IMG/VR virus record: IMGVR_UViG_3300045391_006539
Reading direction: 5' to 3' (one strand)
Length of the DNA stretch: 64,000 nucleotides
Origin: a virus
Lineage: Duplodnaviria; Caudoviricetes
Shown here: positions 3-50,396 of the stretch, one piece after another
Layout: every line of letters begins with the position of its first letter
Numbering within the stretch: position 1 is the first letter of the stretch
The notes under the pieces: generated by a model
What the model was told of the DNA's origin: nothing
Database searches by the model: none
What the model saw: the letters and a program-made list of their open reading frames with translations, nothing else
Position numbers and translations under genes: made by a program

Positions 3-779
3 CAGAGCGAGCAGGTGCAGAGCGGCAACGCTGGTACGGGTCTCGAAACCAATGACGACATGATGCACGGCGAGCAGCCGGTGGAACCCATCAAGAACGC
101 CTCGGCCTTGGTGCAGGCCAACCTGGCCAAGGTGTCCTCGGCACTCGGCGCGGCCATGGGTGTGCGCAACGCCGTGCGCAATACGGCCGTCGATGCCGTC
201 TCCAAGGGCAAGGCCCTTGGTCAGAAGGGTGTCGACTGGGCGAAGGCCAACCCCAAGAAGGCCATCGGCATCGGCGCAGGCGCCGCGGCCGTGGGCGGTG
301 GTGCTGCTCTCGCCTCGCGCAAGAAGGAGGGCTCCGCCCCCATCGCGCTCATCCGGAAGCTGGCGGAAGATGCCATCAATCCGGCGCACATCGACTCACC
401 AGCGAGCGTCAACCCCGCCGAGCCCCCGCCTGGTGCGAGCGCGAGCGAAGAGGGCGTGCCGAGCGAGCCCGGTGACGTGACCAGCCAGAAGCGGATGATT
501 GCCTCCAACCAGGCAGCCATCGACTACACGAAGCGCGAGGCCAAGGCAGACCCCAAGAAGGACGTCGCCCAGGTCGTGACCGAGCCGCCGCTGTCGAGCA
601 CGACGGACAAGGTGCTCGAGCAGGCCTTCGATGCCACGGGTCAGGCCGGCGTGAAGATTTCGTCGGCGGGTGGTCTGCGCAAGACCGCCATGCAGGTGAG
701 CGCCCAGCGCGTCATCCTCGACCGCTTGCTCAAGCAGGCGAGCGCCGACGTGGAGAAGTCCCAGGGCGCGAGCGCCTGA
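3..779 (+). CDS. 5'-truncated Ala/Gly-rich head-region protein with K-x-A motifs (putative internal head/scaffold protein)
   Basis: Frame is open to the window edge; motifs RKLAE, RKTAM, LKQAS; Gly-zipper AIGIGAGAAAVGGGAALAS; lies upstream of capsid genes. Confidence 0.6.
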   Translation, partial: QSEQVQSGNAGTGLETNDDMMHGEQPVEPIKNASALVQANLAKVSSALGAAMGVRNAVRNTAVDAVSKGKALGQKGVDWAKANPKKAIGIGAGAAAVGGGAALASRKKEGSAPIALIRKLAEDAINPAHIDSPASVNPAEPPPGASASEEGVPSEPGDVTSQKRMIASNQAAIDYTKREAKADPKKDVAQVVTEPPLSSTTDKVLEQAFDATGQAGVKISSAGGLRKTAMQVSAQRVILDRLLKQASADVEKSQGASA

Positions 780-793
780 GCGAAGGAGGTCAA

Positions 794-1150
794 ATGGACA
801 AGCAGAGTGCAGCCAAGGTCGCGCAGGTGCTCCAAGAGGCGGGGGAGACCATCCTCAGCCTGAGTGCCGAGCGTGACAAACTGGCTTCCGAGAACGCGGC
901 CTACAAGCGCCGTGAGGAAGCCACCAAAGTCGCGAGTGTGCTCCACGACAAGGGCATCGACCGTGACATGGAGTTTCCCGAGCTGGTATCGAAGCTCGAG
1001 AAGGAAGCAGAGGCAGGCCGTCTCCCAGAGATTGCCCGCGCTGCAGAGTGGATTGGTCCACAGATGAGCTTCGGCTCCACCAATCACGACGAGAACGTTG
1101 GTTCGGGTGGCGACATGCTGACCAACTACCTCGTTGGTTCTGTCGGCTAG
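794..1150 (+). CDS. Putative capsid scaffolding/assembly protein
   Basis: SD AAGGAGG at 783-789; helical coiled-coil character; DKLAS/TKVAS motifs; two genes before the MCP. Confidence 0.5.
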   Translation: MDKQSAAKVAQVLQEAGETILSLSAERDKLASENAAYKRREEATKVASVLHDKGIDRDMEFPELVSKLEKEAEAGRLPEIARAAEWIGPQMSFGSTNHDENVGSGGDMLTNYLVGSVG

Positions 1151-1169
1151 ACCAGAGGAGACCAAGTAA

Positions 1170-1691
1170 ATGAGCACCATTCAGAAGGTCAACTTTGAGA
1201 TAGTCAGCGACTTGTTGAAGAACCAAGTGCGTGACTTCGCGCTTGCCGACAAGACCATCGCTGAACCTCTCAACACAACCGCACTCGTCGACGGCGAGTG
1301 GTTCATCATCGACTCGAGCTACAAGGCGGCGCGGGCCACGGCCATCAACGCGGCCAACAACGTGGCAACGCAGACGTCCTACGTGGTGTGGTCCGAGCGT
1401 GGGCGTACCGACGTGCTGGCCATGGCGCAGCGCAAGGTTCCGCTCATCTTCCTCGGCGATTTCGAGGCAGACACGCGCATCTTCGACGCCACTGCAACGC
1501 CGAGCGGCGGCGCGGCCATCACGACCGTGGGCCAGCCCCTGAAGGTCGCGAGCATCGACATCGGCGGCAAAATCGTGTGCGGTCTCGTCGGCGCCGTCGC
1601 GGGCGATGGCGAGCCCATCGTTGGCCGCGTCACCCGCTTGCCCGCCAACAACGGCGGCAAGCTTCGTTTCGTCCGAGCCAGCAGCATCTGA
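1170..1691 (+). CDS. Putative head decoration/cement protein
   Basis: 173 aa beta-rich ORF with SD GAGGAG, immediately before the MCP (positional inference). Confidence 0.5.
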   Translation: MSTIQKVNFEIVSDLLKNQVRDFALADKTIAEPLNTTALVDGEWFIIDSSYKAARATAINAANNVATQTSYVVWSERGRTDVLAMAQRKVPLIFLGDFEADTRIFDATATPSGGAAITTVGQPLKVASIDIGGKIVCGLVGAVAGDGEPIVGRVTRLPANNGGKLRFVRASSI

Positions 1692-1718
1692 GCTCAGAAA
1701 GGAAAGAGGACACAGACC

Positions 1719-2834
1719 ATGGTTTCAGGTCGCATGCTCAACGAGTCCTTTGCTCAGAAGCTGAACACGGCTGATGGCAAAGAGAAAGTCGCCGAATTCG
1801 GCGGCGCCTACATCCGGGACAAGCTGCGCGAGGTTTCCTTCGTGCGCAAAATCATCCCCCCGGAGAACGTGACGCGCGCGGATTGCCAGCGCTCCGTCAA
1901 CCACGACACGCTCGTGAAGATTGTCGATATCGAGCCCAAGAGCCGCGCGATGACGGTGACCTTCCGTGGCGCTCCGTCGGCTCGCTTCATCCGCGGCGAC
2001 CGCGCCGAGGTGGCCTTCTTCACCATCTCCAGCGAGATGTTCCAGAAGACCGAGCAGGAGCTCCTCGCCTACGAGATGCCCATCACGAAAATCATCGAGG
2101 AGAACTCGGTGAAGGACATCCAGGAAATCGAGGACCGCGAGTTCGTCATCCACATCGAGGCGGCAGTCCAGGCGCTGCAGACCGAGGCCAACAGCGGCAC
2201 CCCGGCGGCGCTGGCAGCGAGCACCATCGGCACGACGGTGGAGTTCTCCATCATCAAGGGCGAGCTCGCCCGCGCCGATTCGGCAGACACGGCGACGGTG
2301 CAGCCCATCCAGCGGCCCGACATCGTCAACCTGTTCAAGCTGCTCGACACCAACCGTCTGCGTTGTGAGCGCCTGCTCATGACGGAGCCGGACTGGGACG
2401 ACCTGCTGCAGTGGACGGTCGAGGACTTCGGCGACAAGATTCAGTCCGAGACGGCCATCGATGGCTACAAGTACAACACGGTGCTGGGGCGGCCTTACAT
2501 CCGCACCATCAAGACGGACATCCTGCGTCCGGGCAACGTGTATGCCTTCACGAAGCCGGAGTTTTTCGGGAAGTTCTACGTCCTGAACAACACCAAGTTC
2601 TACATCGACAAAGTCGCGAACACCATCACGTTTCAGGCGTGGGAAGACATCGCGATGTCGGTCATCAACGTGGCGTCCGTGCGCAAGCTGGAGCTCTACT
2701 CCGGCAATGCCAACCCGAACGCGGGTAACCAGAGCCTCATCGCCAACTTCGTGCCGGTGGACGAAGACCAGCTCGGCGCAGTGAACAACCGCGTGAGCGC
2801 CGGCCTCAAGTTCCCGTCGGTGACCCAGTACTGA
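1719..2834 (+). CDS. Major capsid protein (HK97 fold, inferred)
   Basis: 371 aa, very strong codon bias, SD, followed by a terminator; IRDKLRE.SF.RKI.PP N-arm and KDIQEIEDREF spine-helix-like segment; precedes neck/sheath/tube genes. Confidence 0.8.
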   Translation: MVSGRMLNESFAQKLNTADGKEKVAEFGGAYIRDKLREVSFVRKIIPPENVTRADCQRSVNHDTLVKIVDIEPKSRAMTVTFRGAPSARFIRGDRAEVAFFTISSEMFQKTEQELLAYEMPITKIIEENSVKDIQEIEDREFVIHIEAAVQALQTEANSGTPAALAASTIGTTVEFSIIKGELARADSADTATVQPIQRPDIVNLFKLLDTNRLRCERLLMTEPDWDDLLQWTVEDFGDKIQSETAIDGYKYNTVLGRPYIRTIKTDILRPGNVYAFTKPEFFGKFYVLNNTKFYIDKVANTITFQAWEDIAMSVINVASVRKLELYSGNANPNAGNQSLIANFVPVDEDQLGAVNNRVSAGLKFPSVTQY

Positions 2835-2850
2835 CGGAGCGCGAGACGTA

Positions 2851-2881: not shown

Positions 2882-2882
2882 C

Positions 2883-3640: not shown

Positions 3641-3649
3641 GGTGACTTC

Positions 3650-5119: not shown

Positions 5120-5581
5120 ATGGCACTCGCATTTCGAAAGTTCTCTCGGCTCGAGCACGCGACGTCGTTTCTCCAGGGTCACCTCGTCGGAAGCGTGAGC
5201 TTGCTGCGCAATGGCAACTCGCTCTATTTGCATGGCAAGACCCTCATCTTCACGACGCCGAGCGCCACGGTGACGTTCGATGCGACTCCCGATGGCACGC
5301 AGATTCCTCTCACGCTCGCGCAGGTGAAGTCCCAAATCGAGGCGGGCGCGTCGGGCGTGACGTGCCACTTTAGCGAAGGCCGGCTCGACCTGTTCATGGC
5401 GACGCCCGGGTCTATCGCGCTCGACAAGGACGGCACGGCCAATGCCCAGCTCGGCTTCAGTACGACGGCGGACAGCTCGGCGGCGGTCTATGCCGCGCCG
5501 GGTGGGTCTGCGCCAGCGCTCGTCCAGATTGTCCCGGACACGGGCAGCAACTCCTTCGTGGTGGTGACCGATGATGCATGA
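5120..5581 (+). CDS. Putative structural protein with a sheath-insertion-like module
   Basis: GKTLIF..ATVTF..LTLAQVKSQIEA..ANAQLGF resembles the repeats in the sheath ORF. Confidence 0.5.
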   Translation: MALAFRKFSRLEHATSFLQGHLVGSVSLLRNGNSLYLHGKTLIFTTPSATVTFDATPDGTQIPLTLAQVKSQIEAGASGVTCHFSEGRLDLFMATPGSIALDKDGTANAQLGFSTTADSSAAVYAAPGGSAPALVQIVPDTGSNSFVVVTDDA

Positions 5582-8318
5582 GTTCGAACGCGCCCTTTCC
5601 CGCAGTATTCCTCTCGGGGTCTCCGCTGGCTTCTTCCACCGCATCAAGACGGCGGGCTGGGGGGAACCACCGGATGAGACGGGCGCCCTCGAAGGCGCCT
5701 TTGCCGCGCCCATCGAGCAGGTCATCGCCAAGCTCACCGAAGTGGCGGCGGCGAAGTTCCAGCTGATGGTGGCCTACCATGTCTACGCCGAGAGCATGCG
5801 GGGCGTGGCGCAGCATGCCTGCGCCGAGGTCTTCCACGAGCACGCCGAGCAGGAGCGCGCGGCCGGTGAGGCTTACCTCAAACGCACGGCCGTGCTCGGC
5901 AGTGGCCCCGTCCACCTACCCGAGGTGACGACGCCGCCGGCGAGTGCAGACCCGGCGGGCATTCTCATGCTGCTCGCCCGCGCCGAGCAAGAGGCGATTG
6001 CCGCCCAGCGCGAGCTCAAGGCGCTCGTCGGGGAGGACAACCCCCTCTCGTTCCAAATCGAGCAATTCATGGTCGAGGACCAGCACCACCTCGACGAGTG
6101 CTGGCAGATGCTGCCGCAGGACGCCGTTCGTACGCCAGTCATCGACACGGCCCCTGCCGGTATGGTAGAGGCACCAAACGTCGAGGAGGAGACTCCGGCG
6201 CCTGTCGAGGCTCCCGCAGTGCCGAAGTCTCCGTCCAAGACTGCCGGCGCCCTCGCGAACATCGAGAAGACCGTCTTTGACGGCAAGCGTCTCGGAGCCA
6301 AGCCCTTCCAGTCCTTCAATGCTTTCGGCACGCCGAGCAAAGAGGTGCTGATGGCGCTACCGGCAGGTGGCGCAGCCGTGGGCGCGGGTCTAGGCTCGCT
6401 CAGGTCTCTCGTACAGAGCCCCGAAGACAAGGAGCAAGTCCTCGAAACGGGCGGCCCCGTCAGTCAGTTCAAGACTCGGCACCCCGTCATCGCGGGTGCT
6501 CTCGGCGGCGCAGCCCTCGGCGGCAGTGCTGCGCTCGCAGCCAAGGGCCTCATGCGTGGCCGCTCGCCACTCGACCCTACGGGTGGCGTGAAGCCGGCGA
6601 GCGTGCCGCATCTCGTGGGTGGTGCGGGTCTATTCGCAGCGCCATCGGCGGTGGGCATCGTCGACGAGGCACTCGCCCGGAAGCGGGACGAGGCGCTCGC
6701 CAAGAGCGCGAGCATTGCCGAGCTCGGGCGCAAGATGCGTCGTGGTCTGGGGCGCTACGGCGAGCTCGTCTCGGGGAGCAACGCACGGCGCATGGGTCGC
6801 GCGGCACAAAATGCGATGCTCGACGCGCAGCGGGTGGCTGGAAGGGGCGTCGACCAGGCAGCGCGCAGGGGCAAGCACCACGTGCGAACCCACGGCGAGG
6901 AAATCGTTGGTGAGTTCAAGCGTCGCATGGGCAAGGCGACCGAGCTCGGGGACGCGGCGGTCAAGGAGTACGACCTCTCGCGCAAGGTTCAAATCGGTAC
7001 GGGTGCCGGCGCCGTGGGCGCGCTCGGTACGGCCGCGGCCGCCAAGAACCGCTCGGACATGAAGAAAATCGAGCGCACGAATCAGCGGCTCAAGACCGCT
7101 TTCGTCGTCGCGCTCGAGAAGCTCGCCCTCGCTCCGAGCGAGCCTGGCTTTGGCAGCGACCCGTCGGCGGCGCCCATGCCCGGCAACGAGCCCTCGTTCG
7201 TGCCCCAGCCCAGCATGGAAGCCCCCGGTCCCCAGCCGCCCATGGCGCAGCCGCCGGGCACGGGGCAGTACGCTCCGGTCAACTATCTCGAGGCGGAGCT
7301 CACGGGGCGTCGCGTGCAGGAAGCCAACGAGGCCAACTTCTACCGCGCCAAGGCGGACGAGGCGAGCACGCAGGTCGCCAGTATGGGCGAGCAGGTGCAG
7401 TCCATTCAGGGTCAGCTCGACCAACTCTCGGCGCAGGCTGCCGAGAGCCAGTCGCAAATCATGGCCGCCAACGAGGAGGCCATGCGCGCGAACGACCAGA
7501 TGCTCAACCAGGCGACCCTCGCTGCGCGCATGCGCATGGGCATGCAACAGCTACGCGCCCAGATGATGGAAGTCGCGAGCCAAGACCCCGAGCAGCTGGC
7601 AGCGGCTGCCGGTGGCCCGACGCCGATGGACGTCGGACAACAAGCACAGATGGCGGGCGCTCCGGCGGCGGCCCCTGCGGGTTCTCCTGAGGGAGCGTCA
7701 GACCCGACGGGTGGCGCCGGCGGAGCGCCACCGGGTGCTCCGGCAGAGCCCGGTGCAGACCCGGGAACGCCAGCAGCCTCACCCGACCCGGGTGCACCCC
7801 CAGGCTCGCCGTCGGCGGGTGCGGGTGGCCCTCCAGGCGGTGGTGGCGGTGAGGGTGGCGAATCGCAGAAGAGCGACGGCGGTGAGTCGACCGACAAGAA
7901 GAAAGACACTGCCGAGACCACCGTGTCCATCAAGAAGGGCTCGGCGAAGACGGCCGGTCTCATGAACATGCCGAACATGGAGCAGGAGCTCCGGCACATG
8001 GCACCCTACGTTGCTGCTGGCGTGGGCCTCGGTGGGCTCGCGGGCGCGTACGAGGGCTATCACGAGGGGGACAAGGTTCCGAACCTGCAGAAGCGCGTGA
8101 GTGAGCTGCAGGGGACGTTCGGCAAGTCGCTCGAGCTCGCACAGACCCAGGTCGAGCTGGCGAAGGCGGAAGAGGCACGCGCCAACCCGGGCAAGAGCGC
8201 CCTGCGTGGGGGTCTTCGTGGTGCGGCCATCGGCATGACGGCGGGTGCCATCACTCCGCAGGCCATCGGCGGCGTGCGTGAGCTCGGCAAACACATCAAG
8301 CACCTGAGGGCAAACTAA
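5571..8318 (+). CDS. 915-aa multidomain K-x-A protein: N-terminal ferritin-like four-helix domain, Gly-zipper segments, coiled coil
   Basis: Residues ~48-181 follow bacterioferritin helix spacing (Y..Y, HEHAEQE, LKR..VLG, AEQEAI, EDQHHLD); at least 7 K-x-A sites. Confidence 0.65.
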   Translation: MMHEFERALSRSIPLGVSAGFFHRIKTAGWGEPPDETGALEGAFAAPIEQVIAKLTEVAAAKFQLMVAYHVYAESMRGVAQHACAEVFHEHAEQERAAGEAYLKRTAVLGSGPVHLPEVTTPPASADPAGILMLLARAEQEAIAAQRELKALVGEDNPLSFQIEQFMVEDQHHLDECWQMLPQDAVRTPVIDTAPAGMVEAPNVEEETPAPVEAPAVPKSPSKTAGALANIEKTVFDGKRLGAKPFQSFNAFGTPSKEVLMALPAGGAAVGAGLGSLRSLVQSPEDKEQVLETGGPVSQFKTRHPVIAGALGGAALGGSAALAAKGLMRGRSPLDPTGGVKPASVPHLVGGAGLFAAPSAVGIVDEALARKRDEALAKSASIAELGRKMRRGLGRYGELVSGSNARRMGRAAQNAMLDAQRVAGRGVDQAARRGKHHVRTHGEEIVGEFKRRMGKATELGDAAVKEYDLSRKVQIGTGAGAVGALGTAAAAKNRSDMKKIERTNQRLKTAFVVALEKLALAPSEPGFGSDPSAAPMPGNEPSFVPQPSMEAPGPQPPMAQPPGTGQYAPVNYLEAELTGRRVQEANEANFYRAKADEASTQVASMGEQVQSIQGQLDQLSAQAAESQSQIMAANEEAMRANDQMLNQATLAARMRMGMQQLRAQMMEVASQDPEQLAAAAGGPTPMDVGQQAQMAGAPAAAPAGSPEGASDPTGGAGGAPPGAPAEPGADPGTPAASPDPGAPPGSPSAGAGGPPGGGGGEGGESQKSDGGESTDKKKDTAETTVSIKKGSAKTAGLMNMPNMEQELRHMAPYVAAGVGLGGLAGAYEGYHEGDKVPNLQKRVSELQGTFGKSLELAQTQVELAKAEEARANPGKSALRGGLRGAAIGMTAGAITPQAIGGVRELGKHIKHLRAN

Positions 8319-9097
8319 TGCTGGACGCATTTCTGGAAGTCGCGTGTGGCCGTGAGAAGATGGCCGCGCAGAAGACCCGCAACATGGAGCTGCTCGGCAA
8401 GCTCCCGACCGAGACCCTGCAGAAGATTGCCTGCGGCGGACTCGGCGGGTACGGTGGAGAAGGCTGGCTCGAGAAGTTCCAGGGCAGTCCCTTGCTCGGA
8501 CAGGCCATCGCCATCGAGAAGGAAGAACTCGCCATCCAGATGGAGGAAAGTCAGCGGCGTGCTCGCGAGCGCGAGGTGCGAGAGAGCATGGGCTCGTGGG
8601 AAGACACGGCGGCCAAGCGCGACGAGCTCGCCGTCAAGCGACGTCTTTTGGAACTCGAGCTGGTGGGCGGACCCTCCGCTGTCAGCCCCGCGCCGGCTGT
8701 CGAGGAAGACCCGGGGCTCGAGCCCGAGCTCGCTGCTCCCGCCGAAGACCCGGCGGTCGATGTTGCCCCGAGTGAGGGGGCAGCAGCTCCGCCGAAGGGT
8801 CTACGCCCTCACTCCACGGAGGTGGGGAACGGTGGCGCAGACCCGGGTGCGGAGGTAGACACACCCGAGACCGACCCGAGTGAGGCGGCAGACCCACCGA
8901 AGCCCAAGCCCAAAGCCGAGGCCAAGGAGAAGACTGTCGAGAAGACCACCGAGAAGCCGGTGCCGGAGAAGATTGACGTCAAGACCTCTGAGAAGGAGGC
9001 GGCTGCGCGCTTCAAGTTCGCTGCGGCTCGCTTGCGCTTCTCTCAGGCCGTGAAGGAGGCGCAGCCCGCGAACGGGCAGCGTCCCTTTCACCGCTGA
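8318..9097 (+). CDS. K-x-A head-region protein (short form)
   Basis: TAATG overlap start; EKMAA, QKIAC, EKEAA, FKFAA motifs. Confidence 0.65.
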   Translation: MLDAFLEVACGREKMAAQKTRNMELLGKLPTETLQKIACGGLGGYGGEGWLEKFQGSPLLGQAIAIEKEELAIQMEESQRRAREREVRESMGSWEDTAAKRDELAVKRRLLELELVGGPSAVSPAPAVEEDPGLEPELAAPAEDPAVDVAPSEGAAAPPKGLRPHSTEVGNGGADPGAEVDTPETDPSEAADPPKPKPKAEAKEKTVEKTTEKPVPEKIDVKTSEKEAAARFKFAAARLRFSQAVKEAQPANGQRPFHR

Positions 9098-9851: not shown

Positions 9852-10748
9852 GTGGCCATCGGCATCTCCGTCGACGACGTGGTCGTGCGTTCCCTGGACG
9901 TCGACCACTTCGAAGTCTCCTGGAAGCTCAAGCCGACGAGTCAGGACATTCTGGACTACACGTTCCAGGTCCTGCGCTCGGAGGCGGCGATGGGTCCCTT
10001 CGAAGCGGTCTCGGCGGAGATGGACGACCGGTTCTTCTTTGTCGACAACCGCATCGCCAGCGGCAACGACTTCCGGCAGTGGTTCTACACCATCCGGGTC
10101 AAGGACAAGCAGTCGGGCGACACCAAGGACTTCGGTCCCGTCTCGCCCGGTGCTGACGCAGACCTCATCGCCGCGGAGCTGCGCAAACACATCAACCTGC
10201 TGATGCAGGAGTTCATCGGGCGCAGGTGCTGGGTCTTCCCCGTACGCACCTTCGGTCAACGCTGCTCGTGCTGGAACCCGACGTTGCAGAAGCGCACGCG
10301 GAGCCACTGCCTCACTTGCTACGATACGGGCTTCGTGCGCGGCTATATGACGCCCATCGAAGTCTGGGCCAGCATCGACCCGGATACGAAGAACGAGCAG
10401 AACATGACGCTGGGTCCGACCCAGCAGAGCAACACCTCGGCGAAGCTCGGCTTCTTCCCACCCGTCAAACCGCGCGACGTCATCGTCGAGGCGGAGAACA
10501 TTCGCTGGCGCATCGTGACCGTGGGTGGGACCGAGCAGGTGCGTGCCCAAGTGCACCAGGAAATCACCCTGCACAAGATTCCCTCGACGGACATCGAGTA
10601 TCGACTACCACTCGACCCGGGCGGCGCGCTGCAGAACTTGTGGCTCTCGCCACCTCGGAACTTCAGCAACCCCCACAACTATGAGGGCTTCACGTCCGAG
10701 GACTACATCAACGCCCAGCGTCTATACACCTCGCGGTTCCCCCAGTGA
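9852..10748 (+). CDS. Putative head-closure/neck protein with Zn-ribbon insertion
   Basis: FN3-like N-terminus; RCSCW..HCLTCYDTGF..GY; PVKPRDVIVE..RWRIV barrel; between head and tail genes. Confidence 0.55.
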   Translation: MAIGISVDDVVVRSLDVDHFEVSWKLKPTSQDILDYTFQVLRSEAAMGPFEAVSAEMDDRFFFVDNRIASGNDFRQWFYTIRVKDKQSGDTKDFGPVSPGADADLIAAELRKHINLLMQEFIGRRCWVFPVRTFGQRCSCWNPTLQKRTRSHCLTCYDTGFVRGYMTPIEVWASIDPDTKNEQNMTLGPTQQSNTSAKLGFFPPVKPRDVIVEAENIRWRIVTVGGTEQVRAQVHQEITLHKIPSTDIEYRLPLDPGGALQNLWLSPPRNFSNPHNYEGFTSEDYINAQRLYTSRFPQ

Positions 10749-11134
10749 TGGACAAGTTTTCGCACTGCCTCGACGTTCTCTCCAAACTGGCGGAGCTCGC
10801 GCCCGACCCCATCAAACCGTCGCCGCCAGACCCGCAGATGCCCCCGGGTCGAGCGCTCAGCCTCGCCAAGACGCTCGGCGTCGGGACACTCGGCCTCGGT
10901 GCCGGTTATCTGGCGGGTGCAGGTCTCGGCAAGGGCATCGAGTACGTGATGGGGCAGCAAGGTGAGAATCCGGCCAGTGCTGCACGCGTCATCGCGCCCG
11001 TGGCGGGCGCCGCCGCCGGTATCATCTATCCTCTCTGGAAGGAACGGGAGCAGCAGGTGCTCCGTCAGGCGGTAGAAAAACGACATGCCTACGAGAGTGC
11101 ACGAAACCAAAACAGGGGCAGGCTTCCCGGGTAG
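10745..11134 (+). CDS. Small K-x-A / Gly-zipper protein
   Basis: FSHCLDVLSKLAE leader; two Gly/Ala hydrophobic segments. Confidence 0.55.
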   Translation: MMDKFSHCLDVLSKLAELAPDPIKPSPPDPQMPPGRALSLAKTLGVGTLGLGAGYLAGAGLGKGIEYVMGQQGENPASAARVIAPVAGAAAGIIYPLWKEREQQVLRQAVEKRHAYESARNQNRGRLPG

Positions 11135-12057: not shown

Positions 12058-15000
12058 ATGAGCGTCCAGCTTGCGCAGCCAGGGGTAGAAATCATCCAGG
12101 AGTTTCAGGCTGCGAGTCCCAGCATCATCACGCCGGCGCTCTTGCCCAACGTGGTCGGTGTCGCCAAGCAAGTCGTGGGACTCAATGTCTCCGACGGTGC
12201 GGGTGGTACGACGCTCAACCCGGACGCGCTACTCCAGCTGCCTGCGCAGTTCACGGCACTCGCCGGTAGCGGTAACCCCAAGGTCTACTCGGGACTCGAT
12301 GGTCTCGACCTGGTTTTCTCCGTCAACAACGGCGTCGACATCACAGTCACCTTTGCGGGCAGCAGTCTGTCCGTCGACGACGTGGTGGCACAGGTCAACG
12401 CGGAACTCACGAGCTCGGGTGTCTCGAGCGTCATCGCCGAGACCTTGGGTGATGAGGGCAACTGGACCCTGCGCACCATCGGTACTGGGTCTTTCCAGAC
12501 CATCGTCGTCAAGGCGACGAGCGATTCGGCGGTGCTCACGGCCTTTGGCATTGGCGCAGGCAAGACCTACGCGGGACTCACTGTCTACAACCAGTACGAA
12601 GTGGTGGTGCCGCCAGCGAGTCTGCCCGACCCGCGTGACAACCTGGCAGAGCTCGCCGTCGAGCAGGACAGCATCCGGGTCTTCTTCTCGCTCGGCGGGT
12701 CCGCGGGGGTGTATGAAGCACTGCGCACCGAGGCCTTCCTCAAAAATGGCGAGGTCAATGATGCGGCCGTCATCACGGGCAACGTCTCGCTCGCAGGCCT
12801 GACCCTGCCGGGTGACATTGGTACGGGCACGTTGATGATTTCGGTCGATGGCGGCGCGGCCCAGACCGTCACTTTCAGCAACCCAGCCAACCCCGCCGCC
12901 ATCGTCAGCCAGATTGCCGGGCAGCTCACGGGTGCGACTCCGTCCCAGTCGGGCAACTTCCTGCGTCTCACGACGACGAGTCTCGGCGCCGATGCCTCCG
13001 TGACCATCACGGGCGGCTCGGTCGCGAGTACGCTCGGTGTCTCGGGTCTGACCGATACGGGCGAGAGCATCCAAGCCATCGACGACGGTGATGGTGATTC
13101 GCTCACGAGTCTGCTCAAGTTCTCGGCCGAGAGTTTCACGGCGAGCGCCACGGCGGCGGTGGTGAGTGCCTTCACGGCAGCGACCAATCCTGCCGATGGT
13201 ACGACCCTCATCCTCTCCGATGGTGGGCAGCCACAGACCATCGTCTTCGACGGCGTCGCGGCCTTTGCCGATATCCTCGCCCAAATCAACGCGGTGGTGG
13301 GCACGGTGGCAGGCGGCAAAATCACGGCGAGCGACGCGGGTTCGAGCAAGCTGCGCCTCACGCACTCGGACACGGGCAGCGACTCGGTCATCAAGATTCT
13401 GGGTGGCACGGCACTGTCTGCGCTCGACCCGAGTACCCCGACGCTGGTGGTCGGCACCTACCGGGGTACGGCCAACGTGCCACTGCCGGGTGATGCGCTC
13501 TACATCGATGGCGCTTTCTACGCCAACATCACTCAGGTGGCCCCGGGTGCAGTCGCGACCAACCTGAAAATCGACAAGCTCGTGCCGGTGAGCACGGACG
13601 TCGGCCGCTACTACTACATCGTGGCCAAGGGTCTACCGACGGCGAACCGTCCCGACCCCAATCTGGTGGTGGACGCAAACGGCAACGTCATCCTCAAGCC
13701 GGAGCAGTTGCGCGACGTCAACGGCAACCCGACGTCCGTGACGGCGCCGATGTACTTGTCCTACTCGGCGGTGCGCAAGGACGTCTCGGCGAGTGCCAAC
13801 CAGCCGGGTCTACTGGTCTTCGACGACACGGCTCAGCTCGAGGAAGTGCTCTCGCCGGTAGACTCGACCAACCCGCTCGCGCTCGGTCTGTTCTTCGCCC
13901 TGCTCAACGCACCCGGCGCGCAGGTGACGGGCCTCGGCGTGGATGAAATCAGCGACGATGCGCCCTACGGCACGCTCGACGCTTTCAGCCGCGCCGCGGG
14001 GTTTCTCGAGGGCAAGGAGGTCTACGCCATTGCGCCGTTGACCCACGACCCCTCGGTGCACCAGGTCTTCAACACCCACGTCTCGGTGATGAGCTCGCCC
14101 TCGAACAAGGCCGAGCGCGTCGCCATCATCAACGTCCAGACTCCGACCACCAAGCCTCACACGTTGGTGGCGAGCGGTGTCGGTGACCGTGCGAGCTCGA
14201 CTACGTTCGACACGGGTATCTCGAACCTGACGGCGCTGGTCTTGAACCAAGGCATCACGCCGACCGGCACCATCCCCGCCGATGAAGGTCTGTTCCTCGA
14301 CCTCGCGAGTGATGGCAACCGCTACTCCATCGAGAGCATCAGTGGTGACTCTGTCACCCTGCGCACGAGCTTCGACGCGGGCGAGAACGACGACGGGTTC
14401 TACACCGCTGCAAACCTCGCCTCGACCGTGGTGCAGACCGCCTTCACGGTCAGCGTCCGGGGTGCAGACCTCACCATCGCTGGACTGCCCGACCTCAATG
14501 GCATTGCCGACACGATTGCCACGACGGGTCGCGGCTATGGCAACCGCCGATTGTGGATGACGTTCCCCGACCAGGTGGGTGCGACCGTCAACGGGCTCGA
14601 GAGTCTGCTGCCGGGTTTCTACGCCTCGGCCGCCATCGCGGGCATGGTCGGGCAGCAGCCGCCGCAGCAGGGCTTCACGCGCTTCCCGATGGCTGGCTTC
14701 ACGCGTGTGGTGGGCAGCAACGACCGCTTCAGCACGACGCAGCTCAACGTGATGGCAGGTGGCGGCGCCTACATCCTCGTCCAGGAAGCCCCAGGCGCAC
14801 CCATCATCAGCCGCTTCGCCATCACGACGGACCTCACGTCCATCGAGGTGCGGGAGACCAGCATCACCCGCATCCTGGACTTCACGGCGAAGTTCTTGCG
14901 GCGCTCGCTGCTCAACTTCATCGGGCGCTTCAACATCACCCAGGGCTTCCTCGACACCCTCGGCAACGTCATCGAGGGTCTCGGCCAGTTCCTCATCGAG

Positions 15001-15140: not shown

Positions 15141-16355
15141 ATGCCCCAGAACACGGCACCCATCGCCCTCATCCGCAAGCTCGCGGCTGAGGGCGCGCCG
15201 GCGGAAGTCCCCGAGGGCTATGAGAAGCAGCTCGGCAAGGACTACCAGCGCACGCATCAGAAGCACGTTCAACGTACGGCTCTGCCCACGACCCTCGGTG
15301 CCCTCGGGGGCGCCATCGGTGGCGGTATCCTGAGCGAGCGGCTCACGCGCACGAAGCTGCCTGCGCTCGACTTCATGGGGCAAACGCTCTTACCCGAGTC
15401 CCACATCGCTGGTGACCCGTTCATCGGCGCGCTCGGTGGTGGCGTCATGGGCGGCGCGCTCGGTCATGCTGCAGCCCACCTCTCACCGGAGACCCGGAAA
15501 CTTCGCGACAAGATGCAGTCCATCCAGACCGAGCGTGACGCCCTTGGCGCACGTACGCCCGGGTCTACGACGGTCCTGACCGACGAGAACCTCGACCGGG
15601 ACCGGTACGGGGAGCTCCGTGCCGATGCAGCGCAGGCTCGCCTGAACCTCCGTGAGGCGGGCAAGCCCACACGCGTGGGCGCAGGGCTCGGCGCGCTCGC
15701 TGGGGCAGGTGCCGGTCTGCTCTCGGGTTATCGTGCCAGTGGTGGCAGAGCGTCAGAGATGGCGGCTCACGGACTCCTCGGAACGAGCTTGGGAATCGGC
15801 GCCGGCGCCATCGGCGGCTCGTTGGCCTCTGGACGCTCTTTTCCTCTGGCAATCAGGCGGCAAATCCAGACCGAGGAAGCCCGGCAGCGCTTCCGTCGGG
15901 GCGCGCAGACGCTCGACGCAGAGAAGGAAGCGGCCGCGCGCGCCAACTTCGACAGTCTCTTCGTGGGCCCAGACCCCACACTCGAGGAGACCATCGACGA
16001 GCTCAAGTTCGCGGCCATCGCAGACCCCGAGCTCTTGAAGGTGGCCTACGTGCTCGCCGAAGACGACTTGCTCACGACCTACGAGGCGCTCGGTGGCATC
16101 TACAAGGTCGCCTTTGGTCAGCAGATGTTCGACACGAAGCAGCTCGCGGGTAGTCCTGCCCTCGCCGGTGGCATGAACCAGCGCGCCTCGACCGCCACTC
16201 CCACGCTCGCCCAGCCGGGTGCTCAAGCGCCGCAGTCGCCAGCGGCCCCCAAGGTGCCCACCAGTCAGCCGTCACAGGGTTCGAGCGCTCCTTCTGCTGC
16301 TTCGGCGACGTCCGCACCGTCGACCCCCGGTGCCACGACAATCACCGTGGGTTGA
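15141..16355 (+). CDS. K-x-A / Gly-zipper protein between sheath and tube
   Basis: Start re-called to ATG 15141 (MPQNTAPIALIRKLAA); four GxxxG-type segments; LKFAA, LKVAY, YKVAF. Confidence 0.65.
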   Translation: MPQNTAPIALIRKLAAEGAPAEVPEGYEKQLGKDYQRTHQKHVQRTALPTTLGALGGAIGGGILSERLTRTKLPALDFMGQTLLPESHIAGDPFIGALGGGVMGGALGHAAAHLSPETRKLRDKMQSIQTERDALGARTPGSTTVLTDENLDRDRYGELRADAAQARLNLREAGKPTRVGAGLGALAGAGAGLLSGYRASGGRASEMAAHGLLGTSLGIGAGAIGGSLASGRSFPLAIRRQIQTEEARQRFRRGAQTLDAEKEAAARANFDSLFVGPDPTLEETIDELKFAAIADPELLKVAYVLAEDDLLTTYEALGGIYKVAFGQQMFDTKQLAGSPALAGGMNQRASTATPTLAQPGAQAPQSPAAPKVPTSQPSQGSSAPSAASATSAPSTPGATTITVG

Positions 16356-18577: not shown

Positions 18578-19351
18578 ATGGACAAGCAGGCAAACCCGGT
18601 CGTCGCCGCCAAGCTCATCGCCGCCATGCTCGGCTCGGGCTTGATGATGGCCGACAGTGCCCATGTCCAGGAACTCCAGGAAGAAGCGGCGGTTCTCAAC
18701 GAGATGAGCCGCATGTACGAGGCGAGGAAGATGCAGCAGACCATCGACAGCCTGAGCACCCAGAAGTTCGCTTCGGCCGAGTGGCATGCCCTGCGCGCGG
18801 TGAAGGTGGCGGCCGCCGTCACGGCCGCCGGCGGGGACTTCGACAAGCTCGCGGCCCTGCTCGAGGCGGAGGGCATGGACAAGGAGGCGCTCGGCGCGCT
18901 CATCGGAGGTCTCGCCCGGCTCGGTGGGGCCGCTCTCAAAGGCCTCGGCGGGGGCGCCAAGGCGCTCGGCGCCGCCAAGCTCCCCTCACTCGGGGGCTCC
19001 GGCGTGGGCGCGTTCCAGAAGGCCTGGCAGGGCGCCGCGCCGGCAGCGCAGGCTACCCAGGGGTACCTGCAGCGCGCTGGCGGCTGGCTCCAGGGACACG
19101 GCGCCTCGCTCGCCGCCAAAGGTCAGGCCAGTGTTGCGGCCGCCGCGCCGGCAGCCGCTGCGAGCAAGCCGCTGCTCGGCATGGGAACCAAGGCCAAGCT
19201 CGTCGGCGCGGGTGCGCTCGCTGGTGCGGGCTACCTCGGATACAAGGGTCTGCAGGCGGGACGAGACTACATGCTGGCGCCGCCGCGGCACAGCATTTAC
19301 GGCACACCCGTCGCGAACAACATCAATCAATACGGAGTGCCGCAGTACTAG
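18578..19351 (+). CDS. K-x-A / Gly-Ala-rich protein
   Basis: DKQAN, QKFAS, VKVAA, DKLAA, DKEAL; amphipathic Gly-rich C-terminal half. Confidence 0.65.
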   Translation: MDKQANPVVAAKLIAAMLGSGLMMADSAHVQELQEEAAVLNEMSRMYEARKMQQTIDSLSTQKFASAEWHALRAVKVAAAVTAAGGDFDKLAALLEAEGMDKEALGALIGGLARLGGAALKGLGGGAKALGAAKLPSLGGSGVGAFQKAWQGAAPAAQATQGYLQRAGGWLQGHGASLAAKGQASVAAAAPAAAASKPLLGMGTKAKLVGAGALAGAGYLGYKGLQAGRDYMLAPPRHSIYGTPVANNINQYGVPQY

Positions 19352-39256: not shown

Positions 39257-40717
39257 ATGTCGTTCTCCTTTGCTATTGCGCTAGACAAGCTCGCTGACAT
39301 CTCGACCGAGCTCAAGGACTACCAGCAGCGGGTGGTCGAGCGCATACAGGAGAAGGGTCGCCCGGGGCTCGTGGTTGCCCACGGTCTCGGTACGGGTAAG
39401 ACCCTCTCTTCCATCGCAGCGCAGGACGCGCTCGAGACACCGGCGACGGTGGTGGTCCCCGCCGCACTCAAGGCGAACTACGAGAAGGAGCGGGCCCGAC
39501 ATCTGACGGGTAAGAAGCAGCCCATCAAGCTCGAGTCGCTGCAGAACGTGGCGCGTGCGGGTATCCCCAAGAGCCAGCTCCTCGTCGTAGATGAGGCCCA
39601 TCGGGGCCGAGACCCGGCGAGCGCCACCTTCAAGGCCATCCGAGATGCCAAAGCGGACAAGAAGATGCTGCTCACGGCCAGCCCCTTTTACAACAGCCCC
39701 CACGACCTCGCCCCGCTCATCAACGTGGCGGCGAACGAGCGGGTGCTGCCCAACGACAAGAAGGAGTTCGACGCCCGTTACACACGCTTCCGCCCAGTCT
39801 ATCCGAGTCTCTGGGGTCGGTTGCGGGGTGACAAACCTGGCGAGGTGCAGGAGCTCAACCCCCGTCGGCGTGGCGAGCTCAAGAGCATCTATGACAAGTG
39901 GGTGGACTACCAACCGGGTGGCACCGAGGGCTTTCCCACTGTCACACGTGAAGACGTGGATGTGCCCATGAACAGCGAGCAGCTCGGGGTCTACGACACG
40001 TTGATGGACACGGCGCCGAGCTGGGTCTCGCGCAAGGTGAAGAGTGGTCTGCCTCCCAGCAAGGCCGAGGCGACCCAGCTCAACGCCTTCCTCACCGGTG
40101 CGCGCCAGGCGAGTCTATCGACCGCACCATTCGTTCAGGGCGATACGAAAGTCCACGAAACCAAGATTCAAAAGGCCTTCGAGAACCTGCGGAAGGAGCT
40201 CGAGACCAACCCTGACGCGCGGGCCGTGGTCTATAGCAACTTCCTCCAGGGTGGCATCCGTCCCTATGCCAATCGCCTCACGGCCGCCGGCATTCCCTTT
40301 GGTGAGTACACGGGCGAGATTCCCAGGACCCAACGCGACCAGCTCGTTCGGGACTACAACGAGGGCAAGAAGAGGGTGATGCTGCTTTCGAGTGCGGGTG
40401 GAGAAGGCCTAGACCTCAAGGGCACGCGCCTCATGCAGGTACTGGAGCCGCATTGGAACCGAGAGAAATTACTCCAGGTCGAGGGTCGCGGCATTCGCTA
40501 TGGCAGCCACGAGCATCTTCCAGAGGACCAGCGCAACGTGCGCGTCCAGACCTATCGAGCCACGCGTCCTCGCCAGGGCTTGCTCGAGCACCTACACGTC
40601 AGCAAGCCGGGCGGTGGTGTAGACGAGTACCTGAGCACGCGCAGCAAGGAGAAGGAAGACTTGAACGAGCAGTTCCGGAGTCTCTTGGCTCAGCAGCGTG
40701 AAGATAAGCAGGGCTAG
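39257..40717 (+). CDS. SNF2-like superfamily 2 helicase with a K-x-A leader
   Basis: LKDYQ, HGLGTGKT, VVDEAH, LLTASP, SSAGGEGLDL, EPHWN..QVEGRGIR. Confidence 0.88.
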   Translation: MSFSFAIALDKLADISTELKDYQQRVVERIQEKGRPGLVVAHGLGTGKTLSSIAAQDALETPATVVVPAALKANYEKERARHLTGKKQPIKLESLQNVARAGIPKSQLLVVDEAHRGRDPASATFKAIRDAKADKKMLLTASPFYNSPHDLAPLINVAANERVLPNDKKEFDARYTRFRPVYPSLWGRLRGDKPGEVQELNPRRRGELKSIYDKWVDYQPGGTEGFPTVTREDVDVPMNSEQLGVYDTLMDTAPSWVSRKVKSGLPPSKAEATQLNAFLTGARQASLSTAPFVQGDTKVHETKIQKAFENLRKELETNPDARAVVYSNFLQGGIRPYANRLTAAGIPFGEYTGEIPRTQRDQLVRDYNEGKKRVMLLSSAGGEGLDLKGTRLMQVLEPHWNREKLLQVEGRGIRYGSHEHLPEDQRNVRVQTYRATRPRQGLLEHLHVSKPGGGVDEYLSTRSKEKEDLNEQFRSLLAQQREDKQG

Positions 40718-47627: not shown

Positions 47628-47688
47628 GACGCGCAGGATGCCACCCGTCTTCCCCGAAATCCAGGCCGAGTGGTAAAACATCGGGACG

Positions 47689-49062
47689 ATGCCTTCACTC
47701 CTCCGCTGGAAGTTGCCGAAATCCCGGACTGGGCGTAGACCCATCAGCGTCGCCAAACTCTTGAAGCGGGAAGCAGAGGGTGTCGTCTTCAAGAAGCATG
47801 GCTTCAAGCTCGATGGGGAGACCACCTTTCAAGGACTCGGCATCGCCATCGAGAATGGCGTGGGTTCGACGCGCAAGGGAAAGGATGCTGACGGTACTCC
47901 GTGGTCTATTACCTACAAGTCTCCGTATGGTTATGTGCGGGGGACCAAAGGCGCAGACGGAGAAGAGGTCGATTGCTACGTCGGACCCGAGCGAGATGCC
48001 GATACCGCTTACGTCGTTCACCAAAAGAAGGATGACGGTAGTTACGACGAAGACACGGTCATGCTGGGCTACGCTTCCAAAGCCGACGCCAAGGCTGACA
48101 TTCTGCGTCACTACTCCAATCCCAAGTACGTTGGCGAAGTTGTCCCAGTCGCGATGGACCGGCTCCAGAAGCTTTTCTCTTCAGGCGAGAAACTGGTCAA
48201 GATTAGCGCTGCGACCCATGATTACGACTACCCCGAACTGGACCCTCACGAGACTGGCGGTGCTGCCCGCCCCTGGCGTCGGCGAGAGGAAGCACCTCCG
48301 AGAGACGAGGTAGAAATCATGCCCACACCCAAGGTCGAGCAGCGCGGAGACTACGCAGGGACCTCTTACGCCGGCACGCTGGCGACTCCAGGTGGCTTCG
48401 AGGACCTCGGCAAGACGGCGCAAGGCCTTCGGGCACTGAACTACATGAGCCGAGACTGGGTCAAGGAGGGCATGGACCCAGGTACGCCCATGAGCCCGCC
48501 CCGCTTTCCGAAGATGGACCGGGTGCGTGACAACACGCTCGAGCTCCAGAGTCACGGGTTGCACGTCAACGACATCTCGCCCGAATACGTGGCGGATAAC
48601 AAGGAAGCGGCAGCACGCCGTGGCTTCTTCGACCATCTGCAGAAGGTGGCCTTCCAGAACGGCATCCCGCCCTGGCGGGGGTCACTCGGAGAGTTCGAGG
48701 CCTTCGTGAGCGAGAAGCTCGCCGAGGTGACGCGTGAACAAGCCAACGAGGCTGTAGAACGCCTCGATGCCATCGAGCACAGCCGGCCCACGCTCGGGCA
48801 GCTCTCGCGGGGCGCCCTCATCGGTTCGCTCGTGGGTCCTATCTCGAGCAACACGAGCAAGCTCATCTCGTCAGGGCATCTACACAGTCCACGAGACATC
48901 GCCGGGCAGATTGCCGGCGGAGTGGTCTTCGGTACGGCAGCACCTCTTCTCAAATACAAGGTCGAGAGCGGCGCCGAGCGCAAGGTCCTCGAGGACTACA
49001 TCAACCAGGGTCACGGGGGGCGTCTCGCCACCCAGATTGAACACAAGCTGGGAGAGTCATGA
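47689..49062 (+). CDS. Polyvalent-protein-type inorganic pyrophosphatase (InPase) domain followed by K-x-A segments
   Basis: IAIEN..GS.R.G.D..G.PW....YGY..GT.GADGE.VD.YVGP..VVHQ..YDE..VMLGY; VKISA, GKTAQ, QKVAF, EKLAE. Confidence 0.75.
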   Translation: MPSLLRWKLPKSRTGRRPISVAKLLKREAEGVVFKKHGFKLDGETTFQGLGIAIENGVGSTRKGKDADGTPWSITYKSPYGYVRGTKGADGEEVDCYVGPERDADTAYVVHQKKDDGSYDEDTVMLGYASKADAKADILRHYSNPKYVGEVVPVAMDRLQKLFSSGEKLVKISAATHDYDYPELDPHETGGAARPWRRREEAPPRDEVEIMPTPKVEQRGDYAGTSYAGTLATPGGFEDLGKTAQGLRALNYMSRDWVKEGMDPGTPMSPPRFPKMDRVRDNTLELQSHGLHVNDISPEYVADNKEAAARRGFFDHLQKVAFQNGIPPWRGSLGEFEAFVSEKLAEVTREQANEAVERLDAIEHSRPTLGQLSRGALIGSLVGPISSNTSKLISSGHLHSPRDIAGQIAGGVVFGTAAPLLKYKVESGAERKVLEDYINQGHGGRLATQIEHKLGES

Positions 49063-49307
49063 AATTCGAATATTGCCTGGAAGCACTGGAGAAGCACGCG
49101 GGTCTCGGTGACAGCCTCAAGCGGCTGGCGCTGACGGAGATTCCGGGTACGAAGCCTTGGGTCATCCAGCCCGCAAAGGCCACGGCCTCAGCAGGCTTTG
49201 GCAAGGCCACGCGCAGTATGAGCGGCGTGCGCCCAGCCACCAAACGACTCGCGAGTGGTGCCTATGACGTGAGCCACATGGCTCGACAGATGGGGCTCGA
49301 CAAGTAA
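49059..49307 (+). CDS. Small K-x-A protein
   Basis: MKFEYCLEALEKHAG leader; ATGA-coupled. Confidence 0.6.
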   Translation: MKFEYCLEALEKHAGLGDSLKRLALTEIPGTKPWVIQPAKATASAGFGKATRSMSGVRPATKRLASGAYDVSHMARQMGLDK

Positions 49308-49310
49308 GCC

Positions 49311-50396
49311 ATGCCTGCTTGGATTCACCAGAGGGCGCGGCACATCATGTCCAGGAACCCGGACATGGAGGAAGGACTCGCCTTTGCACTGGCGACACAG
49401 CAATCCCATGCGCTCGGGAAGAGTCCAAAGTCCTACGGTACGGAAGAAGGCCGCTCGACGGCCAAGAAGAAGTACAAGGACCCCAAGGTCATGAAGAAGA
49501 CCGCCTTCGTCGAAGCGCTGCCGAGTCTCACGGGACTCGCCACGGGCTATGGTCCAGGGCGCGGCATTGCCGGCAACACGGCGGCCGTGCTCGCGCCCGA
49601 GGGCCGCGTGCATCGGTCGGACAACATGGCCCGCAATCTCGGAGCCGTGGCCGTACCCGTCGGTGGTCTCGTGGCCATGGGCCTCACGCATCACAAGGGC
49701 CTGGCGGGCAAACTCGGCAAGCTGGTCGAGGGCAAGTTCCCAAGAGGCCTCATCGCCGACCCGAACATCGAGCAGGAGCTCGTGCGGGTGGGTACTCCTG
49801 CCGCTGCAGCCATGGGTGGCAGCCTCGCCGGCGGTGCCCTCATGGGTGGCCTCGTGGGTGGCATTCAGAGACTCCGTGGCCCCCTCGGTCGTGACAAGGA
49901 GGCCTCCATCGACATGGGCGCAACCATGTTCACCCTGACCAAGAGCGCCTTCAACACCAACCAGTACTCGGGCGTGATGAACCCACCGAGCATGGTCTAC
50001 GCGAGTGGCATTCCAGGCTTCCAAGAACCGCCCGTGAAGACGGCAGGGCCACCGCCGCCCGAGGAGGATGAACCTCTACCCCGGTCCAAGATGGCGAGCG
50101 CTCTCGAACAACTCGAAGAGCGCGAGCTTCATGGGCCTGGCATTCGCGTGCCCAACGTGGTGCTCTCGGCCGTGGAGGATGGCGTGCGCTTTGGTCGGCG
50201 CTACGTGCACGCGGAGGACCAGGAGAAGACGGGTGCCTCGGGCATGTTCACACCCATGAGCCAGCTCGGCAAGGCCAAGAGCGTGGGTCTACCCAAGGTG
50301 ACCACCCCACCCGGTCCCTCCATCGCCCAAATATCGAAACCCACAGGGTTTGGTCGCCCCATCTCGGGAGCCGCGAAGGGCAACAACATCATCTGA
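49311..50396 (+). CDS. K-x-A / Gly-zipper protein
   Basis: KKTAF, DKEAS, TKSAF, VKTAG, SKMAS. Confidence 0.65.
   Translation: MPAWIHQRARHIMSRNPDMEEGLAFALATQQSHALGKSPKSYGTEEGRSTAKKKYKDPKVMKKTAFVEALPSLTGLATGYGPGRGIAGNTAAVLAPEGRVHRSDNMARNLGAVAVPVGGLVAMGLTHHKGLAGKLGKLVEGKFPRGLIADPNIEQELVRVGTPAAAAMGGSLAGGALMGGLVGGIQRLRGPLGRDKEASIDMGATMFTLTKSAFNTNQYSGVMNPPSMVYASGIPGFQEPPVKTAGPPPPEEDEPLPRSKMASALEQLEERELHGPGIRVPNVVLSAVEDGVRFGRRYVHAEDQEKTGASGMFTPMSQLGKAKSVGLPKVTTPPGPSIAQISKPTGFGRPISGAAKGNNII

Follow-up and report, generated by a model that had tools for sequence, protein, structure and literature searches.

A Lys-x-Ala signal in the head-module proteins of a soil myovirus lineage as the probable cutting site of a T4-like head protease

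We analysed a stretch of 64,000 nucleotides from the virus record IMGVR_UViG_3300045391_006539 of IMG/VR (Duplodnaviria; Caudoviricetes), hereafter the window, for a short signal, K-x-A (also written K.A, x being any residue), which recurs in the proteins of its head module and in their homologs. The G+C content of the window is 62% and nearly all its genes lie on the plus strand, which carries every head-core, leader-bearing and multi-module gene described below. Open reading frames (ORFs) are named after their first position. The initial annotation had proposed that K-x-A marks, throughout the window, a set of capsid-targeted proteins processed by a protease. Every site that it listed is present in the ORF concerned, including seven in ORF 5571. 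About 150 related loci, taken around the capsid, tube and baseplate genes, were compared; they are labelled L001, L004, L032 and so on, L001 being Salmonella phage Arash. In the explanation that we favour, and which we consider probable as a whole, the window makes up the structural half of a genome of about 190 kb, that of an uncultured soil myovirus which is a distant relative of Arash. IMG/VR holds 294 relatives of its capsid protein, many on contigs of 185-195 kb and some of these with terminal repeats, and the only cultured phages with such a relative are Arash and three Vibrio phages. No match to the head region was obtained with megablast among GenBank phages.

The head-core genes open the window. 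In L004 and more than 50 loci the gene order is protease candidate, acidic K.A-rich protein (230-370 residues), ORF 3, ORF 794, ORF 1170 and capsid protein. ORF 3 (3..779) encodes the C-terminal 258 residues of a head-core protein of about 380 residues, the full length being taken from contigs carrying the same genes. Its conserved site (357-365) reads K-L-A followed by E-D-A-I-N-P-A and marks the junction of a variable region with a conserved block; of 66 distinct orthologs nearly all retain the K and the A, the residue between them being free. ORF 794 (794..1150) encodes a scaffold-like helical protein of 118 residues with K-x-A sites at 815-823, 878-886, 926-934 and 1001-1009, and 4 to 5 such positions are retained in 59 orthologs at about 37% identity. 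The major capsid protein (1719..2834) belongs to PHROG 2522, major head protein, and shares 30% identity with Arash gp226. It has a candidate site at 1785-1793 (K-V-A, residues 23-25), which is retained as K-[IVML]-A-E in the 44 orthologs shown, and gp226 has K-E-A at the matching N-terminal place. The N-terminal arm of the capsid protein is conserved throughout, so that this K-V-A taken alone is weak evidence.

ORF 5571 (5571..8318) encodes a multi-module head protein of 915 residues made of a leader (residues 1-28), a Dps-like ferritin bundle (about 48-180) and low-complexity modules. Its sites lie at 5646-5654, 6237-6245, 7092-7100, 7119-7127 and 7947-7955, with two less certain ones at 6591-6599 and 6702-6710. 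In residue numbering the K.A motifs listed earlier begin at 26, 223, 341, 378, 508, 517 and 793, and an eighth is found at 875. The leader is conserved in the family and ends in K-T-A; K26 is invariant in 19 orthologs, where it occupies one of only 12 invariant columns at a mean column identity of 41%. At the second site, about 200 residues after the leader site, the position is retained and the flanks are not. A structure model of residues 1-245 shows the leader helix terminating at K26-T-A28 and places the site at 223-225 in a disordered linker. The bundle itself (residues 48-180) is modelled with a predicted local distance difference test score (pLDDT) above 90 and matches Pfam PF00210 with an E-value of 1.6e-9. 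Foldseek relates it with a probability of 1.00 to Dps-like proteins, the best being PA4880 (a Pseudomonas dodecamer), followed by Sulfolobus DPSL and thioferritin, and the orthologs share a stretch containing E-x-x-H. On the Pfam match, the confident model and the fold match together, the first module (5571-6245) is a Dps-like four-helix ferritin bundle. A ferritin-like protein would probably be carried as cargo in the phage head, which is unusual.

Several further proteins carry the motif at the end of a short N-terminal leader. ORF 8318 (8318..9097) encodes 259 residues starting with the leader M-L-D-x-F-L-x-V, with a K-M-A site at 8357-8365; all 30 distinct orthologs possess a K-x-A within their 45 N-terminal residues, mostly K-T-A or K-K-A. 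ORF 10745 (10745..11134) encodes a small Gly-rich protein whose leader ends with K-L-A at 10784-10792. At this position, between the homologs of ORF 9852 and ORF 11085, more than 25 diverse small Gly-rich genes of the relatives open with a leader of about 12-20 residues whose last positions read D-E-L-x-K-I/L-A or nearly so; it is the same leader as that of a helicase encoded further downstream. The latter (ORF 39257; 39257..40717) is an SNF2-type helicase of 486 residues, with Pfam Helicase_C and SNF2 domains, preceded by a 13-residue leader with a K-L-A site at 39287-39295. This is its single K.A, where 2.9 would be expected. Its orthologs have F-x-D-E-L-x-K-I-A ahead of the helicase core, and distant ones L-G-x-K-L-A-D. 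Likewise, the sigma-70-type factor of 254 residues encoded by ORF 51760 (51760..52524; Pfam Sigma70_r3/r4) has its single K.A, a K-H-A at 51820-51828, in a leader of about 23 residues, and 89% of 18 distinct orthologs have a K-x-A within the 45 N-terminal residues, after N-P-x-D-x-Y-L. An 82-residue protein (ORF 49059; 49059..49307) also has its sole K.A, K-H-A at 49092-49100, at the end of a leader. BLAST retrieved no orthologs of it; a similar leader often opens the genes found at this position in the relatives.

Two of the Gly/Ala-rich carriers are less widely represented. ORF 15141 (15141..16355), a Gly/Ala-rich protein of 404 residues encoded between sheath and tube, has a leader site at 15177-15185 (K-L-A) and shares with the ORF 3 site the 9-residue run P-I-A-L-I-R-K-L-A. 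It has a single ortholog detectable by BLAST, and a similar short leader with K-x-A occurs at its position in some relatives (L116, L118, L120, L139/L140). ORF 18578 (18578..19351), an Ala/Gly-rich protein of 257 residues, has a K-F-A-S site at 18764-18772 and another at 18845-18853; the evidence from its orthologs is thin, as there are only three, 2 of them with a matching K-x-A after a conserved T-I-D-x-L. Hydrophobic Gly/Ala-rich stretches recur in the motif-bearing ORFs 3, 5571, 9207, 10745, 15141, 18578 and 49311. Judging from such sequences, the Gly/Ala-rich motif-bearing proteins could be ejection proteins which insert into membranes.

The motif is also located at the borders between modules. 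ORF 47689 (47689..49062) contains an InPase domain (Pfam PF18823, E-value 1.2e-35) found in PHROG families of minor head proteins and of DarB-like giant virion proteins. Its orthologs show K-x-A-[FY]-x-L-x-G immediately before this domain. In the window genome itself this conserved site reads K-H-G (47794-47802). A pattern search with this single protein returned three loci only. ORF 49311 (49311..50396) encodes 361 residues, with a 57-residue N-terminal domain, K-T-A-F at 49497-49505, Gly-rich modules and K-T-A-G at 50037-50045; its orthologs have K-[LM]-A or K-H-A-S soon after the N-terminal domain. This domain (49311-49490) is conserved, with the pattern M-P-x-W-I-H-x-R-A ... G-K-x-P-K-G-Y-G-T. 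Modules swap between proteins at K-x-A sites. In L032 (4434-6602) the protease protein has the InPase domain as its C-terminal module, after a K-V-A site, and in L114 (16532-18925) an N-terminal domain of the ORF 49311 type is fused ahead of the helicase, from which it is separated by K-R-A-S and the helicase leader. The latter fusion was observed in L090 as well.

The families were then considered across the related loci. K.A occurs 4.6 times as often as expected in the ORF 794 family (283 against 62) and ranks first of 344 gapped pairs. It also ranks first in the ORF 3 family (2.0 times the expectation, of 374 gapped pairs) and in the acidic protein upstream of ORF 3 (2.2 times, of all gapped pairs), these three families being weakly conserved, and second in the protease family (2.1 times). 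The ratios of observed to expected counts are 1.4 for the ORF 8318 family and 1.3 for the ORF 47689 family. The tail families gave 0.84 for the sheath, 0.44 for ORF 9852, 0.77 for the baseplate protein ORF 44120, 0.74 for ORF 41438 and 0.93 for the tape measure. In a column test for isolated conserved pairs, which has low power in variable regions, K.A obtained 2 hits and G.G 3.

A short N-terminal leader ending in the motif is common to unrelated proteins, namely the helicase, the sigma factor, ORF 5571, ORF 8318, the varied small Gly-rich proteins of the ORF 10745 type and the protease. Among the proteins whose leader is close to F-x-D-E-L-x-K-I/L-A are the helicase and the small Gly-rich proteins. 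Among 2,891 distinct ORFs of the related loci, the pattern [DE][ELQM][LMF].K[ILVTQ]A was found 111 times in the forward sequences and 3 times in the reversed ones, 53% of the occurrences falling within the first 30 residues where 12% were expected. The stricter F.[DE]E[LMF].K.A was found 36 times forward and never reversed, 86% of the occurrences being within the first 30 residues. A family-weighted logo has L, F or M two positions before the Lys, Glu just before it, T, I, V or L between Lys and Ala, and Ser or Ala after the Ala. Ser directly after the motif Ala is enriched 3.1-fold, and Glu is enriched only at the position preceding the Lys. In the ortholog alignments the motif Lys is never replaced and the Ala is occasionally Gly or Ser. 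At leader ends and module borders of the head-module proteins the K and the A are kept and the residue between them varies. That the sites follow short leaders or fall at segment borders, as initially proposed, is borne out by these alignments and by two structure models.

The same pattern is found in the cultured relative. K.A was counted 10 times in Arash gp220 (3.0 expected), 8 times in gp223 (3.0), 7 times in gp225 (1.8), 7 times in gp222 (3.2) and 5 times in gp218 (2.4), against 0 in the Arash sheath (3.0 expected). The flanks of K.A in the Arash head-module proteins are the same as in the lineage of the window. Arash virions contain RNA polymerase subunits, the sigma factor gp10, the helicase gp217, gp220, gp222, gp223 and gp225 (PMC10585845).

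The initial annotation had placed a prohead protease outside the window. Our candidate was located there, three genes upstream of ORF 3 in the relatives, and bears the motif itself; every relative examined encodes it next to the scaffold-like and capsid genes. It is a protein of about 570 residues, comprising a Cys-rich insertion and an extended C-terminal portion (L008:4874-6586 and its orthologs), homologous to Arash gp222 with E-values down to 3e-39. Arash gp222 matches PHROG 18299, 'head maturation protease', with an E-value of 2e-6; two members of the clade gave no match in the PHROGs, gp222 alone doing so. Searching Pfam and the PDB sequences with a profile of the family returned nothing meaningful. 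The first 284 residues were modelled with AF2 from 26 sequences (pLDDT 76). In this model the leader, residues 1-34, is disordered and ends with F-E-K-T-A-S. Foldseek ranked T4 gp21 (5jbl) first, with a probability of 0.90 and an E-value of 0.058, followed by many herpesvirus proteases, and VIA-align matched the model to gp21 with a Z-score of 8.0. In a search made independently of Foldseek, gp21 came first of 48,161 chains (Z 7.9, root mean square deviation 2.8, 131 of 165 residues, or 79% of the chain), 1.5 Z above the next fold, the protease of varicella-zoster virus (VZV) being third. About 20 herpesvirus protease entries are present in the Foldseek and VIA lists.

H117/H118, S174 (also S185) and H216 are invariant in the 26 sequences, and assemblin-type enzymes have the order His, Ser, His. 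Inteins interrupt the protease genes of several relatives, immediately following the invariant H-H or D-V-S-M-G, or immediately ahead of C-S-I-C; insertions of this kind are typical of catalytic motifs. The genes bearing them are L004:4061-6925 and those of L023, L051, L057, L058, L075, L079 and L081, with one to several inteins each, composed of Hint and LAGLIDADG domains according to Pfam. The protein of about 570 residues is probably a head protease of the T4 gp21/herpesvirus assemblin fold. Arash gp222 (146737-148212), annotated only as 'structural protein', is likely to be a head maturation protease as well. A protein of 246 residues was also considered for this role and rejected, being the acidic K.A-rich scaffold-like protein.

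Altogether, we consider it probable that the K-x-A signal is the cutting site of the phage's own T4-like head protease and that it marks head-core proteins and, probably, proteins packed into the capsid; the cutting is inferred. The head would assemble around a core of scaffold-like and cargo proteins, to be processed by the serine protease of gp21/assemblin fold. The enzyme would recognise an invariant Lys followed two residues later by a small residue, usually Ala, typically within hydrophobic-Glu-Lys-(Thr/Leu/Val/Ile)-Ala-(Ser/Ala). In ORF 794, ORF 3 and the acidic protein upstream, the many sites would allow degradation of the core. A single site ending an N-terminal leader of 12-35 residues would have another role, the leader being a targeting peptide removed once the protein is loaded into the prohead. 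This may apply to the capsid protein, the protease, the Dps-like module, the helicase, the sigma factor and the small Gly-rich proteins. Multi-module proteins would be cut into pieces at the sites on their module borders. By analogy with the T4 targeting sequence, the leaders are suggested to load proteins into the capsid. Two positions of the cut bond both fit the sequences: K-x-A|, resembling the A|S cut of herpesviruses, and hydrophobic-x-K|x-A, in which Lys would take the place that Glu has in the T4 rule.

A number of results weigh against this explanation. The bare motif shows no enrichment over composition-matched shuffles in the window: 95 K.A were counted in its 82 proteins where within-protein shuffles gave 96.0 +/- 9.0, and 12 proteins have a K.A in residues 3-32 where 10.3 were expected (p 0.32). 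Since the orthologs are not independent, the family z-scores are inflated, and the gapped-pair ranks and the reversed-sequence control, though fairer, correct for this only in part. A Z of about 8 for the protease model is at the edge of what unrelated models reach, Pfam PF03420 gave no match in five complete relatives, and hhalign found no match between the protease alignment and T4 gp21 (probability 0.1). The RNA polymerase of five relatives (L161-L165; a single-chain beta-beta' enzyme in frames of 2165-3259 residues starting with M-A-Y-L-D) has no K-x-A leader, and neither have the Arash helicase gp217 and sigma factor gp10, which are nonetheless carried in the virion, so that packaging does not always need a leader. 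Finally, tryptic peptides from Arash virions are reported to cover 100% of gp223, within a range of 96-100% for gp223 and gp220 (PMC10585845). In view of the eight K.A sites of gp223, this tells against a complete cut after Ala in gp223, though not against one after Lys; a cut at Lys, or one that is incomplete, suits the coverage better.

The window-wide marking proposed by the initial annotation has to be narrowed on these grounds. About half of the K.A in the window fall in proteins with no other sign of processing, such as the tape measure (7 sites) and the baseplate protein ORF 44120 (6 sites), both in line with expectation. With half of its occurrences at the chance level, bare K-x-A does not mark a set of proteins. 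Tighter forms fare better. K.A[SGAF] was found 46 times where 29 were expected, a count matched by none of 500 shuffles, and a hydrophobic residue followed by [ESRDK]-K-x-A was found 5 times in the first 32 residues where 0.8 was expected (0 of 400 shuffles), the latter pattern having been chosen after looking. KTAG ranks only 15th among the over-represented tetrapeptides of the window. The pattern had also been described as unseen in ThyX and the kinase; ThyX and the dNMP kinase contain one K.A each, which is the chance level. By itself the window is a hint of the signal and not a finding. As to the protease-processed set, what holds is the conservation of the motif where leaders end and where modules meet in head-module proteins, with no excess in tail proteins, whereas capsid targeting and cleavage would follow only by inference.

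The same tryptic coverage suits a first alternative, in which the leader and its K-x-A are a docking or recognition signal that stays uncut, read by the scaffold, the portal, a chaperone or an enzyme which modifies or cross-links Lys, the gp21-fold protein acting on other sites or on itself only. Indeed gp223 and gp220 are reported at 96-100% coverage in virions despite their 8-10 sites. Against this stands the location of the motif: it closes leaders that are disordered or falls in disordered linkers separating folded modules, and proteases cut at such places. Its density is moreover highest in the protease and in the scaffold-like proteins encoded next to it, as with T4 gp21 and gp22, and modules have been exchanged at the sites. 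The Pfam and PHROG annotation of the head module shows no modifying enzyme. We regard such an uncut signal as unlikely.

Alternatively, the sites could be cut by a host protease or another phage protease, the gp21-fold protein being a structural protein or a barrel protein resembling those with MCE domains. MCE-domain proteins do reach Z-scores of 5-6.5 against the protease model, and the candidate lacks a sequence match in Pfam or the PDB. Yet the next fold falls 1.5 Z short of gp21, 79% of whose chain is covered, about 20 entries for herpesvirus proteases stand in the Foldseek and VIA lists, and the family matched by Arash gp222 is one of 'head maturation protease'. The order of the invariant residues, His, Ser and His, is that of assemblin-type enzymes, and the three intein insertion points coincide with these motifs. 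No protease of another family was found, in a search that was limited. This second alternative appears very improbable to us.

The slightest chance is left to the already disfavoured reading of K-x-A as a by-product, without shared function, of composition and of helical or coiled-coil sequence in the Lys/Ala-rich proteins of a high-GC phage: the window counts do equal those of the shuffles (95 against 96, and 12 against 10.3 at the N-terminus) and several carriers are helical and Ala-rich, but in three families that are unrelated and weakly conserved K.A heads the list of about 350-370 gapped pairs, with x variable, the extended leader piles up at N-termini and exceeds the composition-keeping reversed sequences by 111 to 3 and 36 to 0, K26 is among the 12 invariant columns of a family with 41% mean column identity, and the sole K.A of the helicase and that of the sigma factor are both in the leader.

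Returning to cutting by the phage's own head protease, the closest counterpart is the T4 gp21 system. There too, a protease of the same fold, with removable ends of its own, is encoded beside the scaffold and capsid genes, scaffold-like proteins (T4 gp22) contain many sites, and unrelated cargo proteins (IPI-III, Alt) have a short N-terminal leader ending in a site. In both systems the motif consists of two fixed positions around one free residue. T4, however, cuts after Glu in (L/I)-x-E, whereas here Lys and Ala are the fixed residues; sequence similarity is not detectable, the protease has about 570 residues, and among the putative cargo are a helicase, a sigma factor and a Dps-like module. 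From its sequences the system appears to work like that of T4 while belonging to another motif class, and it differs from T4-type systems in the fixed residues of the motif, the architecture of the protease and the cargo.

To our knowledge, every characterised T4 gp21-type protease (T4, phiKZ, SPN3US) cuts after Glu. The proteases of phiKZ (gp175) and SPN3US (gp245) do so at S/A/G-x-E and A-x-E (PMC10052503). They are large myoviruses whose heads contain many processed proteins, ejection proteins among them, and whose virions also carry an RNA polymerase, features that our lineage would share; in the arrangement of capsid and polymerase our lineage has no kinship with them, and none of the fixed positions of its motif is acidic.

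Three other systems offer partial likenesses. Herpesvirus assemblin cuts (V/L/I)-x-A|S. It has the same fold, with Z-scores of 4.5-6.2 for the proteases of VZV, pseudorabies virus (PrV), human cytomegalovirus (HCMV) and Kaposi's sarcoma-associated herpesvirus (KSHV), and its His/Ser/His order is matched by the invariant residues of the candidate; were the cut made after Ala, the residue preceding the bond (P1) would be Ala and the one following it (P1') frequently Ser in both. At P3, however, assemblin requires a hydrophobic residue, and in the motif described here this position would be Lys. The HK97 gp4 protease removes the delta domain of the capsid protein by a cut after Lys103. If the cut at our motif is made after Lys, the candidate would be a further prohead protease with Lys at P1; HK97 differs in that it is not known to have separate cargo leaders and in that its protease belongs to another sequence family (S78). 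Encapsulin cargo-loading peptides are comparable in that a short terminal peptide on a ferritin-like protein would direct it into a shell of HK97 fold. They differ in being usually C-terminal, uncut and of other sequence, whereas the leader found here is N-terminal and tied to a protease.

A more specific proposal, which we put forward tentatively and consider somewhat doubtful, is the following. The specificity of the gp21/assemblin fold would have moved from Glu to Lys/Ala, perhaps to Ala|Ser, and a single cleavable N-terminal address close to F-x-D-E-L-x-K-I-A would load a varied capsid kit delivered with the DNA. According to this proposal the kit may comprise the sigma factor, the SNF2-type helicase, the Dps-like ferritin, a pyrophosphatase-like module and many small membrane-active proteins.

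A homolog of Arash gp234 (9852-10748) is encoded between the head and sheath genes, and its Cys cluster C-x-C ... C-x-x-C suggests a zinc site. The tail sheath (12058-15132) has 1024 residues, of which only residues 634-1024 or so match other sheaths, the N-terminal 600 residues forming an extra region. ORF 16379 matches gp237, the protein at the tube position in Arash, ORF 35529 is the probable tape measure and ORF 44120 encodes a baseplate protein.

The soil-phage lineage to which the window belongs is large, widespread and uncharacterised, and the presence of the same pattern in its cultured relative Arash makes the Lys/Ala rule testable. If true, this rule would widen the known specificity of the gp21 enzyme fold and would tighten, or put to the test, its link with herpesvirus assemblin. 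It would also provide a simple sequence rule for predicting which proteins are packed into the head, among them a sigma factor and a helicase with a possible role at the start of infection.

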